Part shown: positions 3,424 to 29,474 of the stretch, in pieces
How the letters are laid out: every line of letters begins with the position of its first letter
How positions within the stretch are numbered: the first letter of the stretch is position 1
Origin: a virus
Taxonomy: Duplodnaviria > Caudoviricetes
Virus record (IMG/VR): IMGVR_UViG_3300048901_000076
Coordinates: 1 to 37,915 of that record
DNA: 37,915 bases
Reading direction: 5' to 3' (one strand)
Notes under the pieces: model-generated
Told to the model about the DNA's origin: nothing
The model's database searches: none
What the model saw: the letters and a program-made list of their open reading frames with translations, nothing else
Translations under genes and position numbers: made by a program

Positions 3424-3456
3424 TCACTCTCATTATACAGCTTGTTTTTCTCGCGA
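3424..3456 (-). promoter_or_regulatory. Repeated phage promoter motif, copy 5
   Basis: Minus strand TCGCGAGAAAAACAAGCTGTATAATGAGAGTGA. Confidence 0.75.
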
Positions 3457-10259: not shown

Positions 10260-11107
10260 TCATCCGCGTCCCAACCGTTCCGACGACCACGTCGCTTCTC
10301 CGAATGCTCGACGAAGCCGGCGACGTCTCGACCGTAGGAACCTTCGTTGCGAAGAACCTCGAAATCCATGCACATCTTCTCGTTTCGGATGTAAACCGTG
10401 TTCTTGTCGCCGTTGGTGAACATACCGAACTTGTCCATGTTTCCTTCTCCGACCACACCATCGACATCAGGAATCGGCATCTCTCGCTCGTCAACGAGAA
10501 CACCATCCTCCTCGAAGAAGGTCAACGTGCTTTGTCTGAAGCCGACTTCTTCGTGCATGAACATGTCGACGGGAATCAGATATGGTCGATCGCGACCTTG
10601 ACGGAGATTACGCACGTATTCTTCGTAAGTAGGCCAATCGTCCGGAAGCTTCTGAAAGAGATGCCGCTCCTCCAACGCATTTTCCGGACGAAGATCGAGG
10701 AGTGTCTCAACTTCCTCGACCGCTGTTTCCTCATCCGTCGTAAGTTCTTCCGTCCTTGTGTAGTCCACGATCGGAATTCGCTTCAGTCCGTCAAGAACGC
10801 GTATCAAAGTCGGTTCGGAGACTTCACCGTCCTGATACAGTGCCAAAGCACCTGCCGCTTGTTCAGCCGTGACCTCGCCTGCAGGAACCTCTCGCTCAAC
10901 ATCCTCAGTCCTGTCCGCCAACTTCGCGTACGGACCTACCTTGTAGAGCATTTGGTATGTGGTCTTCGTTGCTGCGATCTGCTCGGTTAGTTCCCGTTCG
11001 AAGCCCGCTTCGAGTCGTCTCTTCGCGATCTGGTAACCCGCGACAAGACCCGTCGCCATCGAAGCTACGGAAGTGCTTGCGAGGACCGCGATGATTCGCC
11101 TGTCCAT
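10256..11107 (-). CDS. Hypothetical protein with N-terminal membrane anchor
   Basis: Hydrophobic N-terminus, acidic middle, C-terminal PYLI...TLTFFEEDGVLVDE...VYIRNE domain. Confidence 0.8.
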   Translation of the reverse strand: MDRRIIAVLASTSVASMATGLVAGYQIAKRRLEAGFERELTEQIAATKTTYQMLYKVGPYAKLADRTEDVEREVPAGEVTAEQAAGALALYQDGEVSEPTLIRVLDGLKRIPIVDYTRTEELTTDEETAVEEVETLLDLRPENALEERHLFQKLPDDWPTYEEYVRNLRQGRDRPYLIPVDMFMHEEVGFRQSTLTFFEEDGVLVDEREMPIPDVDGVVGEGNMDKFGMFTNGDKNTVYIRNEKMCMDFEVLRNEGSYGRDVAGFVEHSEKRRGRRNGWDADE

Positions 11108-11113
11108 AATTTC

Positions 11114-12010
11114 TCACTCCTTGATCTTGTCGAAGATGGTGCCCTCGTCGATGTTGAAGTCGATCAGGATCGCGCCTTCCCAGCCGTTTACGAAGGCTCG
11201 CGCCCGCTCGTTACTGCCGTCGAAAATCCCGAAGTCGATGTAGTTCTTGTTGCCCTTGCCGAGGATCCAACCCAATACCGCACCCGCCCTGGACCGTTCC
11301 ATTCCGAGAGCGTCATACACCTCGTTCAGGAACACGTGACCACGCGACTGCAACAGATTGTTGAGGTAATTCTGCTTCGCCTGCAGGAAGAAGCGATTGT
11401 ACTCCCAGGTCCGCTGCCAGTCGGCGCACGTCTCATCGAAGAACCTCGCGTGAACAGACGCGTCCTTGGCCACCTTGACTGCCTTGACGACCACACCTTC
11501 GGGAGTGTCCTCGGCGAACTCACGAAGCTCATAGCCGTAGCGGTATTCGTCGTCCTTGTCCTTGCCGTACTCTGCGATAACTCGGTCGCGGTAGTCGCGG
11601 AAGCCCTTGTCCAGAGCCGCGTATGCCGCCGTCAGAGCCACGTTCCGCCGAGTGAGGATGATGTGCGACCCAGTCAGTGAACAGATCGACAGAAGACCAA
11701 CGGCCACACTCGGCAAATACAGCTTCATGATCTTTCCGGACGTCCTGGCCAACAGAACCATCTTGTCGTGCTTCTGGTCCTTCTCGGAGTAACCCTCGAT
11801 GTTCTCGGCCAGGTTGATCTTCTCCAGAATCTCCTGGTGTTCCTCGAGCACCTCGTCGAGCTTGAGAGTTGCACGGCTCGCCAGAACGGCCGCGGTCACG
11901 ACGCCGACGACGCCAACCCCGAACAACAGCGTGGGTGATGCACCCTGCACTTTGAGGATCTGCCTGCCCGCACGGGAGGTGATCGCATTTCGAATAGTGG
12001 CGAGTTTCAT
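11114..12010 (-). CDS. DUF6353-like membrane-associated protein (paralogue A)
   Basis: SPTLLFGVGVVGVVTAAVLASRATLK...LYLPSVAVG...RRNVALTAAYAALDKGFRDYRDRV. Confidence 0.8.
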   Translation of the reverse strand: MKLATIRNAITSRAGRQILKVQGASPTLLFGVGVVGVVTAAVLASRATLKLDEVLEEHQEILEKINLAENIEGYSEKDQKHDKMVLLARTSGKIMKLYLPSVAVGLLSICSLTGSHIILTRRNVALTAAYAALDKGFRDYRDRVIAEYGKDKDDEYRYGYELREFAEDTPEGVVVKAVKVAKDASVHARFFDETCADWQRTWEYNRFFLQAKQNYLNNLLQSRGHVFLNEVYDALGMERSRAGAVLGWILGKGNKNYIDFGIFDGSNERARAFVNGWEGAILIDFNIDEGTIFDKIKE

Positions 12011-12883: not shown

Positions 12884-13123
12884 TTACTTGTCGGTGACGT
12901 TGGTCTTCCACCATTTGACAGCCGAGTCAATCGCGTTGTCGGTGTACTGGCCGGCAGCCTTGGCAACGATCGATCCGATAACGTACGTCGTAACGGGCAT
13001 GGTGATGTTATCCACCAGCCCTTCACGGGTTGTGTTATTCATGACGATCTTACCAACGATGCTTCCAGAACCGATTCCGACGACGATCTTGACTGCCTGC
13101 TTGGCGAGTTCGATCTTGGTCAT
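12884..13123 (-). CDS. Small membrane protein (cassette 4 cargo)
   Basis: 79 aa with two Gly-rich hydrophobic segments; directly after the promoter motif and SD GAAGGA. Confidence 0.8.
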   Translation of the reverse strand: MTKIELAKQAVKIVVGIGSGSIVGKIVMNNTTREGLVDNITMPVTTYVIGSIVAKAAGQYTDNAIDSAVKWWKTNVTDK

Positions 13124-13141
13124 TTCAGTCCTTCTTTCGTA

Positions 13142-13174
13142 GGGGTCTCATTATATGCGGTGTTTTTCTTGCGA
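13142..13174 (-). promoter_or_regulatory. Repeated phage promoter motif, copy 4
   Basis: TCGCAAGAAAAACACCGCATATAATGAGACCCC. Confidence 0.8.
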
Positions 13175-13411
13175 TGCGTGGGCACATTCTCTTCTGGGTT
13201 GGAGAACAGAAGACTACGGCTGTCGTTTAAAGTAAGCGGCCGGAATAAGGGCTTGAATAGACCCCTCAGCGCAAGCCCTTTGCTTACTCCCTTGTTCGCA
13301 TCGTGTTACTTGTGTAGGTGTTTGAGTAACAGATAGGCCAACCAGAGGCCTCCTGTCAACCCGGTGAGAAACAGATCTACCAGGAAGTGACCGAACCCGT
13401 AACGGTTGGTC
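13172..13411 (-). ncRNA. Candidate multi-stem structured ncRNA
   Basis: 240-nt gap with no ORF of 60 aa or more, containing at least seven inverted-repeat stems, including a long-range CGATGCG/CGCATCG closing stem. Confidence 0.6.
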
Positions 13412-13984
13412 TTAGGAGTCTCCTGACGAGCGGGCGAAACCGGCCTGAAGGATCGTCAGAGGGATGTTCTTCCCCTTGAGTGGTCGCATCAACGCCGTCC
13501 ACTCCTCGTTCGACATCGCGACAAGTTCTGCGATCGTGTAGTCCTCAGGCGCCTTCTTCTGCTCTTCGTCCGCACCATCGCCGACGCCCAGGACCACCAC
13601 ATCCGTGCTGGCCGCGATCGCTCCACGCATGTCTTCAGGAACGATGCCAGTGATGAACTCGGTTGCCGCTCCGGAGTTCGTGACCAACTCCATGAACAGA
13701 ACCGAATACGCGTCGGACTGCATGAAGTTGTTCCGGATCGTGTCGGTCTTCTCGAAACGCTTACCGTCTACGGAACGCTCACCGACGGCCATCGAGATGA
13801 TCTTCTTGAACTCAGCCATGATGGTGGCGCCGTCACCCGCCGCGATGATGTTTCGCAGGTAGGTGGCGAAGTCGTTGTGACCGAGGGCGAATTCCGCCAA
13901 CTCGGCCTTGGAGAGGTGGAAGTAGAACGTCTCGACATACTTCTGTCCGTCGAATCCGTCGTACTGGATTTCCTTCTTCAGCAT
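13412..13984 (-). CDS. Conserved hypothetical phage protein (possibly tail-chaperone-like)
   Basis: MLKKEIQYDGFDGQKYVETFYFHLSKAEL...GERSVDGKRFEK...FMQSDAYSVLFMEL. Confidence 0.8.
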   Translation of the reverse strand: MLKKEIQYDGFDGQKYVETFYFHLSKAELAEFALGHNDFATYLRNIIAAGDGATIMAEFKKIISMAVGERSVDGKRFEKTDTIRNNFMQSDAYSVLFMELVTNSGAATEFITGIVPEDMRGAIAASTDVVVLGVGDGADEEQKKAPEDYTIAELVAMSNEEWTALMRPLKGKNIPLTILQAGFARSSGDS

Positions 13985-14218: not shown

Positions 14219-14983
14219 TTAGATGTTGAACCGGTCGAAGTTGTGGATCGGCATTACATGGAAATCGATGACGATACAGGGTTTACCGCTCTCGGTGATG
14301 GTCGCCGAGAAATTGAGCTCAACCTGTTTGTCACTATTCCATCCGACGTTGTCGGAGATGGCCGTTGACGGGAGGCCTACCCGCTCATAGAAGTCCGACA
14401 ATGACGCATAGCTGTCATGAAGGATTCTGTAGTTAATTGTGTTCTGTGCCTGCTTGATCGTCTCGAGATCGCTCAAGAAGTAACGACCAGTATACGAGTC
14501 GAAACACAGAACACTGCCACCGCCTGCGATGATCACTTGAGCAGAGTCGGGAGGATTACGATCGACTCGGTCCTGGGCGATCTCATCTCTGAAACTCTGT
14601 TCTTTTGTGTTACCCAGCTTCTCCACGATCTTTCCACGATATTCAGCGAAGGCCTTCTCTGTGATCGTGTACGCAGCTGCTACGGCTGCAGCGCGTCGAG
14701 ACCCGATCCGATCCGCAAATATGATCGCGACAATTGTGAGAAGACCGGTTCCTGCAGCTGGAATATAGAGTTTCCAGACGAGTTCGAAAGTCTCCTTGTC
14801 AGAAATGGGTTGTTCTCTGTGCATCGCCTCCTCTTCGAGAAGATATACCGCCTTGATAGTCGCCTTGCCCGTCAAGATCGCGGTTGTGACGACACCTGTG
14901 ACACCGATTGCTGTCAGAATAACCGGTGAGTTGTTGGTGACCAACCTACTTGCTCGTTTGGCCAAATCTGCGAATGTCGCCAT
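14219..14983 (-). CDS. DUF6353-like membrane-associated protein (paralogue B)
   Basis: NSPVILTAIGVTGVVTTAILTGKATIKA...WKLYIPAAGTG...RRAAAVAAAYTITEKAFAEYRGKI; start ATG 14983. Confidence 0.8.
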   Translation of the reverse strand: MATFADLAKRASRLVTNNSPVILTAIGVTGVVTTAILTGKATIKAVYLLEEEAMHREQPISDKETFELVWKLYIPAAGTGLLTIVAIIFADRIGSRRAAAVAAAYTITEKAFAEYRGKIVEKLGNTKEQSFRDEIAQDRVDRNPPDSAQVIIAGGGSVLCFDSYTGRYFLSDLETIKQAQNTINYRILHDSYASLSDFYERVGLPSTAISDNVGWNSDKQVELNFSATITESGKPCIVIDFHVMPIHNFDRFNI

Positions 14984-15212
14984 GGAACCCCTTCGCGATC
15001 GCGAATAACTGTCGATCAACCTCGTTCATTCGAGCAGCCTCGCGTTTACTTTCGCGTCTACTCTGAATACGGTTGATCAGGCGAATAAGATCGTCATACG
15101 CGCCTCTGATGACACACCCGGCGACAACGATCAGAAACATCGCGCCCACGATGATGAATACGAACTCGAGAGTGGATAGGGCGAGTTGTTCAGAACAGAC
15201 TGTACCGGGCAT
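14946..15212 (-). CDS. Small membrane protein
   Basis: ATG 15212 with SD AAAGGAG; TM segment FVFIIVGAMFLIVVAGCVI. Confidence 0.7.
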   Translation of the reverse strand: MPGTVCSEQLALSTLEFVFIIVGAMFLIVVAGCVIRGAYDDLIRLINRIQSRRESKREAARMNEVDRQLFAIAKGFHGDIRRFGQTSK

Positions 15213-15623: not shown

Positions 15624-15639
15624 TGGGTCTCCTTCTGTT

Positions 15640-15672
15640 GGGGTCTCATTATAGTCCCTGTAATTCCTGCGA
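15640..15672 (-). promoter_or_regulatory. Repeated phage promoter motif, copy 3
   Basis: TCGCAGGAATTACAGGGACTATAATGAGACCCC. Confidence 0.8.
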
Positions 15673-15968: not shown

Positions 15969-15984
15969 GGCTTCTCCTTCGTTA

Positions 15985-16017
15985 GGGGTCTCATTATACA
16001 CGATGTTTTCCCCGCGA
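15985..16017 (-). promoter_or_regulatory. Repeated phage promoter motif, copy 2
   Basis: TCGCGGGGAAAACATCGTGTATAATGAGACCCC. Confidence 0.8.
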
Positions 16018-16398: not shown

Positions 16399-16413
16399 GC
16401 GTTCTCCTTCATA

Positions 16414-16446
16414 GGGGTCTCATTATACGCCTTGTTTTAGGCGCGA
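16414..16446 (-). promoter_or_regulatory. Repeated phage promoter motif, copy 1
   Basis: TCGCGCCTAAAACAAGGCGTATAATGAGACCCC. Confidence 0.8.
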
Positions 16447-17588: not shown

Positions 17589-18671
17589 TTATGTCGTCTC
17601 CTTCCAAACTCCACCTGTTCGAGCCCAGGGACGCGCAACCTTCCAAACTCCACCAGTTCTCACGTATGGAATAGCGAACTTCCAAACGGCCCCGACTTTG
17701 ACATAAGCCGCAGCAAGTGTCACGATCGAAGTTGTAACCGACCACGCACTGTTACCAACTGCGTTTCTAGCCCTCACCCAGAAATAGTATCTTGTTCCGG
17801 GTGTAAGACCAGTAATTGCTTTCGGCGAGGAAGATGCGACAACTGTCGTTGGAGTCATCGGATCTGTTCCGTAGCCAACGTCATATCCGGTGATTGGTGA
17901 ACCACCGTTTGGCGGAGCAGTCCACGCCACAGTTACCGAGGTTTGGGTAATATCAGTGACCGTGGGCGCGGACGGTGGCGTTGGCGTACGAAGAGTCGTT
18001 GTTGACGCTACCGGACTCCATGGACTGTATCCCGCTGCGTTGTGAGTTCGAGCCCAGACGTAATACGTAGTCCCCGGAGACAATCCCGTGATACTAGTCG
18101 ACCCGTCGGAGGATATGATCGTCGCTCCGGTAATCGAACTTGTCGTGTGATACGCCAACTGTCGCGAATCAATCGTAGCTCCACCACTACCGTCAGTAAA
18201 TGTGGCAAATAGTGAAGTTGACGTAACACTGGACAAAACGGGCTTTGTGGGTGCTGGAGATGCCCGGGGGAAAGTTGGCAGTGTGACAGTCTGAGATATC
18301 GTTGAAGTGAAATTACTCGGCGTATCCCAGAAAGCACTACCGACGAAACGAATATTACCTGCGCCAGTTGATGGGTTGTGATCAATTCTCGTGGTTCCGG
18401 ATTTAAACGGATGATCTCGATTAGGTCCTGAACCAGAGATTGGCCACCCTGAATTGTAAGTACCTGTCGTTACAGTGAGGCTAGCGGTCGCACCCGAAAC
18501 CGTTGTCGACATGTTTACAATTGCATCGTGGATGTTGAAGTAATATGTTCCCCAATGAACACCAACAGTCCATGATACAAGTGTATAGTTTCCTGCCGTA
18601 TTCGTCGATATGTTGTAATCAACGTAGAGATATGAACCGTTATTACTCGAACCGGTAAGTCGAGTAGTCAT
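17589..18671 (-). CDS. Minor tail / receptor-binding protein with two fibronectin type III domains
   Basis: Two FN3 repeats (ITGLSPGTTYYVWARTHNAAGYSPWS; ITGLTPGTRYYFWVRARNAVGNSAWS); C-terminal G-[AG]-VWK repeats. Confidence 0.85.
   Translation of the reverse strand: MTTRLTGSSNNGSYLYVDYNISTNTAGNYTLVSWTVGVHWGTYYFNIHDAIVNMSTTVSGATASLTVTTGTYNSGWPISGSGPNRDHPFKSGTTRIDHNPSTGAGNIRFVGSAFWDTPSNFTSTISQTVTLPTFPRASPAPTKPVLSSVTSTSLFATFTDGSGGATIDSRQLAYHTTSSITGATIISSDGSTSITGLSPGTTYYVWARTHNAAGYSPWSPVASTTTLRTPTPPSAPTVTDITQTSVTVAWTAPPNGGSPITGYDVGYGTDPMTPTTVVASSSPKAITGLTPGTRYYFWVRARNAVGNSAWSVTTSIVTLAAAYVKVGAVWKFAIPYVRTGGVWKVARPWARTGGVWKETT
17601..17687 (-). repeat. Three 39-bp-period repeats (13-aa GGVWK units)
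   Basis: CTTCCAAAC at 17601, 17640 and 17679. Confidence 0.75.
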
Positions 18672-27227: not shown

Positions 27228-28019
27228 CTAACTAGTGATGGTCCAACTATCGGAATCGACAGGAGTAACGCCGTCTTGCGTGATTTGCCAAATGCCTGCG
27301 CCAACATCAAGCTCAGCAACTTCGAAACTTGACCCTGCGATGGAGAATCGGCCAGAACCTAGATCCGTGACTGTGAATTCAGCTACACCTTCAAATATAG
27401 CTGCAACTTCGTCAGGTGTAGGGAGACGAGGGTCCGCAAAATCTGTTCCGTAGAGAATATCTTCGAGTTGAGAGATTGCGAAGTCCGGAGCCGAAGTCGT
27501 ATCGATTACAAGATGTGCACTTCGCATCGCTCCTGGCATGGACACAGGTTTGACAGCGATAAGCCAACTGAGAAGCGATACGTCAGTGTTCTCTTTTAAC
27601 GTACCGTGCTTCCTATCAGCTACCGCAGCAAGTGCGTTGTAAACAATGTGAATCTTGTAACCGTGATCTGTCCCGTCGACGTCGTTACCTATTCTGGTTC
27701 GGTAACTGAAACCGAATGATTTACGACGTTGTTGTGTTGTATACAGACCGGGGTGAATTTCTTTAATTCCTTCGCACGCATCGAATTCTCGAGGGCTGTA
27801 GTACGCACTGATGGTCGCAGAAAACTCTTCGCGAGCGGAATACATCAAGTACATCACACCATCGAGATAGAACGATTTTGGATCGCCGCCCGAAGGAGTT
27901 TCATCGACCGAAGCGAGGCCACTCCAAGCAACTCCGGTATCGTCGACATACAGTACGCCTTTTGAAACACCAGCTTCGTAGAAACGAGTCCCAAAACCAT
28001 CCCATAACAGCTTGGTCAT
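27228..28019 (-). CDS. Major tail protein paralogue 2
   Basis: MTKLLWD...RFYEAGVSKGVLY...AWSGL...GYKIHIVYNALAA aligns with 28599..29474; SD AAAGGAGG before ATG 28019. Confidence 0.85.
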   Translation of the reverse strand: MTKLLWDGFGTRFYEAGVSKGVLYVDDTGVAWSGLASVDETPSGGDPKSFYLDGVMYLMYSAREEFSATISAYYSPREFDACEGIKEIHPGLYTTQQRRKSFGFSYRTRIGNDVDGTDHGYKIHIVYNALAAVADRKHGTLKENTDVSLLSWLIAVKPVSMPGAMRSAHLVIDTTSAPDFAISQLEDILYGTDFADPRLPTPDEVAAIFEGVAEFTVTDLGSGRFSIAGSSFEVAELDVGAGIWQITQDGVTPVDSDSWTITS

Positions 28020-28032
28020 GTTAAACCTCCTT

Positions 28033-28575
28033 TCAGCCACTCGTTCCCAGTGCGGCACGTCGTTCGGCGTTCAAACGTCGCCTATCTGCCGCTGCTTCTG
28101 CTTTCGTCATCTTCTTAGGTGGGGCATTCTTAACGTTGCAGACTTTGATCAATGTGAGCAATCTATTAAGATGCCAATCCTGACATTCGAATGGAATATT
28201 CAGAGCAATCATCCAGTAGTAAATCAATTCTGCTGTGATGACTTCTCTATTCACGCTTCGAACTTCTTGATCACTAAACCACGTTGCGGTCATCTTCGCG
28301 TTGACATACTCGTCAATCGCTTGAACGTTCGCAACAGAGAGTTTATGGAAAACTTCCGGAGGAACATTCTGGGTCATCGTCATGGCACGGATGTACCAGA
28401 GCTTTTCTTCAGAAGTCTTGTCGTCTCCACTCAAGAAAGGTTTCTCAAATTTCGACTCCCATTTTGACAGTGAGACCAGAGAATGCTCTAGCTCCAAGAC
28501 GTACACCTCTGAGTCGACGAACTCTTCGCGGCTTTCGTCGAATCCTTCGGCTATCGGAACATGTATCGTGAGCAT
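28033..28575 (-). CDS. Tail assembly chaperone
   Basis: Follows the major tail gene; [16 protein letters not shown]...[33 protein letters not shown]. Confidence 0.65.
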
Positions 28576-28598
28576 TCTCTGGTCTCCCGTCACTAAAA

Positions 28599-29474
28599 TT
28601 ACGAGAAGTCGGCGAAGAAATCGTCGACGAAGGGGATGTTGAATGCGTAACCGGTCGCCGGACGCATGTGCACGACAGTGTCCTCGGTGATGACGACGGG
28701 TCCAGCAACCTTGTCGACGCCATTGATCGAGTAGATGATTCCCGCGTGCGTCGGGATAGTGATGGTGTGAGTCCCGTTGTCGTACGTCGGCGGGATCACC
28801 GTGACCATCGTGATCGTGCCCGCGAACAGAGCCAGAACGTCATCCGGCAACGGAAGTGACGGATCCGAACCGACCGTGCCGTAGAGCGTGTCTAGAAGCG
28901 TGGCCAGTGCGTCAGCGTCGACCAGCGTTGAGTCGATCACGAGCTCCGACGTGGGCTTGTAACCCGTCACCGCGATCGGTGTGGTAGAGATCGCCCACGA
29001 GAACGCGATGGGTGCCGGAGAGTCGTTGATCGTGCTGTACGCCTTCTCGGAGGGAGCTGCGAGGGCGTTGTAAATCAGGTGAAGCTTGTAGCCCTTCTCC
29101 GTCCCTTCGAGATCGTTGCCCTTGCGCGTGCGGAAGCAGAGCCCAAACGGCTTCCTCGGCTGCTGACCGATGGAGACACCAGGTTCCGGCTGAGAAGTTC
29201 CGTCGCACTCAGCGAACTGATCCGGGTAGGTGTACGCCTCGACCGTACCGCCGAACTGCTCGATGGAAAGCAGGTTCAGGTACATGATGTTGTCGGCGTA
29301 CTGCTTGTTCGACTCCGCTCCCGAAGGAGATTCCGTGACGGTGGTCAGACCGTTCCACGCGAAGCCCGAATCGTACTGGCCGGACGTCTGGTTCAGGAGG
29401 TACAGAACGCCCTGGTCGACACCGGTTTCGAAGAACCGGTCACCAGATGCATCCCAAATCAGCTTGGTCATCAT
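28599..29474 (-). CDS. Major tail protein with C-terminal Ig-like domain
   Basis: [19 protein letters not shown]...[16 protein letters not shown]...YADNIMY; strongly C/G3-biased codons. Confidence 0.88.

Follow-up and report, generated by a model that had tools for sequence, protein, structure and literature searches.

Results and Discussion

Genomic context of the element

The window analysed here spans the whole of a linear virus record (37,915 bases) whose completeness is about 64%. Its family-matched genes (terminase, portal, capsid-protease, two major-tail proteins, tape measure, holin and primase-polymerase) all lie on the minus strand. It is related to phages of Streptomyces (BI), Gordonia (DJ), Rhodococcus (CC), Arthrobacter and Microbacterium. 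The gene that concerns us encodes a tail assembly chaperone (Table 1). A structure model of its product (pLDDT 89) gave no match at E<=0.001 in a PDB fold search. This gene is located about 13 kb away from the major-tail genes (27228-29474), among small genes; in FP_oengus the chaperone gene comes after the major tail gene (L041:2233-4144). The two major-tail genes of the window are paralogues (27228-28058 and 28599-29474), and DUF6353 paralogues are found on both sides of the locus (11114-12010 and 14219-15019).

Table 1. Coordinates of features at the chaperone locus and of the shared promoter sites in the window.
Feature	Position	Strand	Remarks
Tail assembly chaperone gene	13412..13984	-	Pfam Phage_TAC_17, PF23803, E 2.5e-40; fixed upstream neighbour
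Small membrane-peptide gene homologue (TGGLW family), frame	13306..13413	-	phmmer; contains the 5' hairpins of the sequence-only reading
Conserved structured RNA, 132 nt	13172..13303	-	Three-way junction P1/P2/P4, with P3 arm and candidate antisense loop
P1, 5' strand (outer CGAUGCG, bulge, inner GGG)	13289..13303	-	Extension duplex median -12.9 kcal/mol across members
P1, 3' strand (CCC, then CGCAUCG)	13172..13182	-	Overlaps the TCGC box of the next promoter
P2/P3 arm	13231..13288	-	P2, 13282-13288 with 13231-13237; P3, 13272-13280 with 13247-13255
Internal loop AUUCCGG of P2/P3 arm	13240-13246	-
Candidate antisense loop core, AGGGGUCU	13259..13266	-	Complementary to the post-TATAAT motif; 8-bp match to 3/5 window promoter sites, 7-bp to a fourth
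UUAAA junction and P4a, CG(A)CA/UGUG	within 13183..13230	-	UUAAA, 13226-13230; P4a, 13221-13225 with 13183-13186
GCCG contact strand and variable P4b hairpin	within 13183..13230	-	P4b, 13190-13213
Promoter TCGC-N15-TATAAT with leader GAGACCCCTACG	13138..13173	-	G at 13149; before gene 12884-13123
Promoter and leader copy	15636..15672	-	G at 15647; nearest listed promoter upstream of chaperone gene and RNA
Promoter and leader copy	15981..16017	-	G at 15992; candidate target
Promoter and leader copy	16410..16446	-	G at 16421; candidate target
Fifth promoter site	at 3431

A sequence-only reading of this DNA had described the gap downstream of the chaperone gene as the largest non-coding gap of the window and as the source of a candidate novel RNA of ~240 nt beginning at the upstream stop codon. 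All the complementary stretches that it named exist where it placed them, and comparison with relatives divides the gap into two parts. Positions 13413-13306 read as a frame of 35 codons with homology to a family of small membrane peptides, and the translation, a hydrophobic peptide of 35 residues, resembles short frames from related phages (E 2e-7 to 9e-6; phmmer search of 43,146 frames). Because the 5' ~108 nt thus read as the homologue of a peptide gene, a 240-nt RNA is unsupported; the conserved element covers the 3' 132 nt (13303-13172) and in this genome does not start at the chaperone stop. The four stems proposed within 13304-13411 are not conserved and fall in the peptide frame. This stretch folded alone has a z-score of -3.44, and one of its proposed stems, TGTTACT/AGTAACA, is absent from the predicted minus-strand fold. 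Members of the same TGGLW family also lie between the chaperone gene and the RNA in four other loci (L037, L076, L017 and L178). The window frame, in the +1 frame just behind the chaperone stop, is preceded by an SD-like AGGAG and has no ATG, GTG or TTG at its start; it may be a pseudogene, have an unusual or other start, depend on a frameshift or reflect an assembly error.

The 3' 132-nt element is almost certainly a real RNA. As the sequence-only reading had it, this RNA is novel and structured: it is conserved and covaries in the syntenic gap of relatives, ARAGORN calls no tRNA or tmRNA, and in a comparison of the window with Rfam 15 no family reached the gathering score and the sole row at E<=10 was a chance lncRNA. 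The same comparison with 20 member loci returned only a tRNA elsewhere in L351.

A three-way junction supported by covariation

The sense strand is the minus strand, whose fold is more stable than those of shuffled sequences (z -3.08); that of the plus strand is not (z -1.15). Relatives conserve the long-range stem CGATGCG/CGCATCG (13297-13303/13172-13178), whose overlap with the TCGC box of the next promoter is confirmed, as well as the stems AGTAAGC/GCTTACT (13282-13288/13231-13237) and AAGGGCTTG/CAAGCCCTT (13272-13280/13247-13255); they also confirm the hairpin at 13190-13213, which is variable. The UUAAACGACAG linker, first described as unpaired, is so only in part, its CG(A)CA pairing with UGUG.

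In alignment A1 (MAFFT, 34 members, made without reference to the structure), 95.6% of 743 cells are paired, compared with 29-43% in slid controls. Both sides change in 11 of the 22 pairs, including 7/8 in P2 and 4/4 in P3. About 20 core bases are nearly fixed; their invariance, like that of the inner P1 pairs, P4a and the GG/CC contact in A1, is partly imposed by the search pattern. Members recovered by other search routes vary at these places: Mudcat and the first of two L192 copies change P4a from A-U to C-G and from G-U to G-C, ReqiPepy6 also has the G-C change but has lost the adjacent C-G, and in Scarif the GG/CC contact survives as G-U. Next to P4a is a pair that reads G-A in 59 of the 62 G-type members and A-G in 8 of the 13 A-type members. 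Given the compensatory variants of P4a, the G-U form of the contact and the G-A/A-G swap, comparison of the sequences indicates that the molecule folds as a three-way junction, GGG-P2-UUAAA-P4-CCC, in which one A is bulged and a long-range GG/CC contact is probable. Single-sequence folds of the members vary widely (z -0.8 to -3.8), so that the evidence for this fold is comparative rather than thermodynamic.

Distribution among phages

The final collection contains 75 non-redundant members, kept from 81 non-redundant rows after six that were weak, incomplete or, in the case of L024, distant had been dropped. In addition, 72 cultured-phage records (Streptomyces BI, Gordonia DJ and Rhodococcus CC) contain a match to the Bilo copy, at a single place in each. 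The RNA lies directly 3' of a stop codon, and the fixed upstream gene is that of the chaperone, which is found in 65/75 members; the loci of the other ten hold at most about 400 nt upstream. One copy per record was found in all 26 records that were searched whole. In L192 a diverged second copy lies in tandem about 130 nt upstream of the main one, with compensatory changes in P4a.

Several searches converge on this arrangement. The exact core pattern occurs in 32 IMG/VR loci, 30 of them directly behind a same-strand chaperone homologue, and blastn with the gap finds RosaAsantewaa (E 1e-12) independently of our covariance model R1. With R1, 64 of 120 pattern loci from metagenomes score above 30 bits; the window copy scores 102 bits, a circular value as the window is included in the model. 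A looser pattern of 14 bases gave mostly chance matches, the chaperone being present in 4 of 120 loci, two of them new. No cellular copy was found in GTDB, where the 43 loci scored 24 bits at most and none had a chaperone next to it, and a locus search with the chaperone protein alone yielded no confirmed loci.

Within the fetched regions, R1 detects no copy near the gene in Teacup, StarLord, Qui, AddiRose, Camille, Damascus, contig89 and oengus, and detects only a degenerate core near the gene in Mudcat and Kardesai. In Microbacterium phages the chaperone region is followed, in place of the RNA, by a multi-hairpin array and a degenerate tRNA-like element (L356:6670-7200; L044:4950-5210).

Stimulation of readthrough or frameshifting at the chaperone stop was considered and rejected, the spacing being variable and a small gene being able to intervene. 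A riboswitch or other cis-acting 5' leader was likewise rejected: the next gene's own promoter overlaps or follows the 3' end of the RNA in 44/75 members, and the fixed neighbour is the upstream gene.

A look-alike junction behind tail-tube genes

The distant row L024 led to an unrelated siphophage family, represented by 80 loci, with an uncatalogued three-way junction of 50-80 nt that contains UUAAA (L357-L436; for example L357:1420-1483, L362 and L375). Among 65 distinct readable gaps after the major-tail gene, 50 parse as a minimal GGG-P2-UUAAA-P3-CCC junction under a loose rule that makes a few parses wrong; the remaining 15 include plain terminator-like hairpins. Two kissing loops of this junction co-vary (32 members, p 5e-5, uncorrected). 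RNAalifold gave no consensus on alignment A3, in which a hand-set structure of two helices pairs 79% of the cells, and 20 of the loci had no relevant Rfam match at E<=1.

Among 57 look-alike loci, R1 picks out L357 (24 bits, a circular value) and L425 (13 bits). Model R3, built without L357, gives it 42 bits, followed by elements of Mudcat, Kardesai and L336 (E 0.6-1.5), and does not find the window copy. From these sequence comparisons, homology of the look-alike junction to the 132-nt RNA family is suggestive only. The look-alike supports the idea that the junction core would be a compact scaffold for a 3' boundary or for stability, onto which an antisense arm would have been added.

Phage promoters and the start of their transcripts

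The promoter shared by these phages reads TCGC-N14/15-TATAAT and is followed by GAGACCCCTA and then by the SD sequence; four of the five sites in the window have this leader. The form found family-wide is TCGC-N14/15-TATAAT-GA. With 14-15 nt between TCGC and TATAAT, the spacing is shorter than is usual for sigma-70-type promoters. Just upstream of 31 out of 166 promoters is an inverted GGG(G)TC half-site.

Two observations bear on the start site. In the pre-tRNA leader of ReqiPepy6, the bases directly after TATAAT pair with the tRNA trailer. Among 137 promoters, the closing stems of promoter-fed non-coding units begin at -3 to +2 in 15/21 cases, in a search that is biased since stems were forced through G+3 and that includes some chance rows. 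These pairings suggest that +1 is near the G directly after TATAAT, and not 7 nt downstream. If instead the usual sigma-A -10 arrangement applied, +1 would fall about 7 nt downstream and half of the target discussed below would lie outside the mRNA. The promoter-fed units themselves are hairpins, 75-300 nt long, in which direct repeats occur internally and the opening bases pair with the closing ones (L008:3220-3480, L351:12456-12760, L331 around 10830-10940 and L333 around 17785-17890).

The apical loop is complementary to the leaders

The apical loop of P3 is the reverse complement of GAGACCCCUA, the motif that lies behind the phage promoter and directly against the ribosome-binding site. 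This complementarity had been missed in the sequence-only reading and points to an antisense or decoy role. Watson-Crick matches of at least 7 nt to the consensus leader are present in 62/75 members, compared with 2.7% of shuffles. They reach 13 nt with the consensus and 14 nt with the phages' own leaders, and are centred at +3 to +9. The match is shorter than 7 nt in 13/75 members, which counts against an antisense role. In phages that carry the RNA, the motif is found in 82/112 coding leaders versus 8/38 non-coding starts, by a coding rule that misfiles some; in phages without the full RNA, the figures are 4/39 and 0/16. The candidate targets are 4-11 leaders of one promoter class.

Own leaders fit the loop better than do those of other phages (21 phages, permutation p 1.5e-4 to 1e-3, with kinship ignored), and specific loop-leader swaps are seen in L347, L346, L343 and L333. 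Tree-aware tests were not significant: 28 of 32 phages were concordant, with only one independent pair on supported branches. On the chaperone tree, which holds 32 of the 47 usable members (those with two or more leaders), disjoint pairs gave eight with, two against and six tied. Taken from sequence comparison, co-evolution of loop and leader is suggested.

Other observations concern the loop itself. The loop core is predicted to be only 0.37 unpaired on average over 43 members, which counts against an antisense role; in the window copy a weak helix partly closes the loop, and AGGG is predicted to be 0.07-0.3 unpaired. Also counting against this role, L016 and L235 lack the loop and have kept C-rich leaders. 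Thiqqums has lost the core and retains P1 and the loop as a plain hairpin. Because a downstream promoter or leader is absent in 29 of the 66 loop-bearing members, action in trans is indicated rather than action on the next gene. Pairing of the loop with GAC or with the C-run of P4 was rejected as the sole reason for loop conservation; an internal kiss is unnecessary, since P4 is without a CCCC run in 34/62 members. The fixation of the ~20 core bases is left unexplained by an antisense role.

Comparison with known RNAs

The closest known systems are the c4 antisense RNA of phages P1 and P7 and the CI RNA of P4. According to PMC5320573, c4 is a small multi-stem RNA cut from a longer transcript, and its loops pair with phage mRNA near the ribosome-binding site. 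RNase P processes c4 to about 77 nt. The 132-nt RNA would work like P1 c4 without belonging to that family, whose Rfam covariance model gave no match. Both are multi-stem, with a loop complementary (here by prediction) to phage mRNA near the ribosome-binding site. However, c4 has two loops, a' and b', and targets a single immunity operon, whereas the RNA described here has one candidate antisense loop, sits at the 3' end of a gene and has the leaders of a whole promoter class as candidate targets.

The drum, skipping-rope, DUF3800-I and FuFi-1 motifs are conserved structured RNAs with one neighbouring protein gene and a place at a 3' boundary, as described in PMC5737381. The 132-nt RNA resembles them in being highly conserved and tied to one neighbour gene at such a boundary; in their case the neighbour is of DUF3800 type, in ours it is the tail assembly chaperone (PF23803), and again Rfam gives no match. 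Like 6S and other promoter-mimic RNAs, the 132-nt RNA contains the template-strand sequence of a promoter start region, but unlike 6S it has no long hairpin with a central bubble, no match to 6S in Rfam and a motif specific to coding leaders.

Family-C three-way junctions with loop-loop contacts include the purine riboswitch aptamer, the L11-binding domain of 23S rRNA (with a UUAAA turn) and the pistol ribozyme. They share with the 132-nt RNA three helices, a short A-rich UUAAA junction and the probable GG/CC contact. Unlike them, it has no Rfam match and no expression platform, its 3' end often being overlapped by a promoter of the next gene, and their ligand-binding or catalytic residues were not recognised in it.

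A literature search found no paper that describes this RNA. The core motifs are absent from seven supplementary files of PMC10690425 (files 1-2, with ~10,000 candidates that may include the RNA, lie outside that search), no relevant term occurs in the covered main text of 10.64898/2026.09.15.751765, and the RNA is not mentioned in part 1 of 2 of PMC9671017.

A possible trans-acting regulator of the phage's own genes

We propose, tentatively and with the odds slightly against it, that the 132-nt RNA pairs in trans with the leaders of many phage genes and damps their translation. Pairing of the loop with leader RNA, whether to repress or to protect, is somewhat more probable than its absence, and repression is the least certain step. 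The RNA would be transcribed from the TCGC-TATAAT promoters as the 3' part of the chaperone message, and the compactness of the GGG-P2-UUAAA-P4-CCC junction, with its GG/CC tertiary contact, would let it persist as a stable 3' fragment. Transcripts of the target class would start at or just before the G after TATAAT, so that GAGACCCCUACG would be their 5' end, directly ahead of the SD; their 5' ends should not lie downstream of GAGACCCC. The loop would seed a duplex of 8-14 bp at the leader and hinder 30S loading. As it accumulated, the RNA would feed back negatively, with a delay, on the early and replication regulon from which it comes. Known phage antisense RNAs target one operon or host genes, and here one RNA appears to find a common landing site ahead of a whole class of the phage's own genes; if true, this would be an RNA-based timing control of the lytic programme. 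The RNA occurs in 72 cultured-phage records, among them phages of harmless laboratory hosts, and is missing near the gene in sister clusters, which makes a direct test with natural controls feasible.

The same pairing could have the opposite sign, the loop capping phage mRNA 5' ends, blocking 5'-end-dependent decay and boosting the regulon. FasX and RoxS shield mRNA 5' ends in this way, and the target would consist of the transcript's first ~12 nt, with the SD left unpaired. We consider this unlikely, as a 130-nt RNA bound beside the SD would be expected to crowd the 30S footprint and one RNA copy per operon transcript would limit stoichiometric protection. An unlikely but somewhat stronger competitor is a purely cis-acting 3'-end element, in which the junction ends or protects the chaperone message as a terminator or as a barrier to 3' exonucleases. 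The loop match would then be incidental, and might represent a phage protein's half-site on the DNA or a fragment copied from a promoter; the inverted half-sites upstream of promoters fit such a DNA-binding protein. The constant place of the RNA directly behind a stop codon also agrees with a cis role, as do the core-only versions in L016, L235, Mudcat and Kardesai and the other phage family, where the look-alike alternates with plain hairpins and has a U-rich tail. Against it, the complementary stretch occupies the apex of a covarying arm in most members and outlives the core in Thiqqums, and the leader motif is specific to coding leaders. A cis role at the 3' end and an antisense role are compatible with each other.

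Action at the promoter itself seems improbable. The loop, which carries template-strand sequence, would invade the melted promoter and pair with the non-template strand at the start site, capture every nascent 5' end of the class or act as a 6S-like polymerase decoy. If true, a whole regulon would be under an RNA-guided switch, built on a junction scaffold that is found repeatedly in tailed phages unrelated to one another. The complementarity reaches the last T of TATAAT in 18/62 members, and with a sigma-A start at +7 the match would span the start site. Against it, non-coding units with the same promoter begin with GAGAAG or GAAAGG, so CCCCUA is not a requirement of the polymerase. The supercluster of these phages encodes a putative YonO-like RNA polymerase, according to 10.1101/842583, which would favour action at this level; YonO, however, strongly prefers DNA over RNA templates (PMC5467207). 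Slightly less probable again is a novel ribozyme whose self-cleavage would sever the polycistronic message and to which the antisense arm would be an addition. It would account for the ~20 fixed core bases, the bulged A, the G-A/A-G pair and the likely tertiary contact, but no Rfam ribozyme matches the RNA, and in the look-alike family, where the topology is retained, hardly any sequence other than UUAAA is fixed. On the plus strand, 13424-13440 resembles a hammerhead; these positions fall within the chaperone gene, and the resemblance was dismissed on visual inspection. The sequence-only reading had also offered a replication-origin DNA structure, which is hardly credible: several stems do lie upstream of the primase-polymerase operon, but GC skew shows no inflection at the element, the covariation is of RNA type, with G-U and G-A/A-G pairing that works on the sense strand, and the element is missing near the gene in several related phage groups.

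The flanks of the RNA contain a further short motif, ATAT(T/C)(T/C), located 5' of it in 21 and 3' of it in 21 of the 75 members. The motif is commoner where no promoter follows (14/31 versus 7/44) and is a possible end or processing signal.
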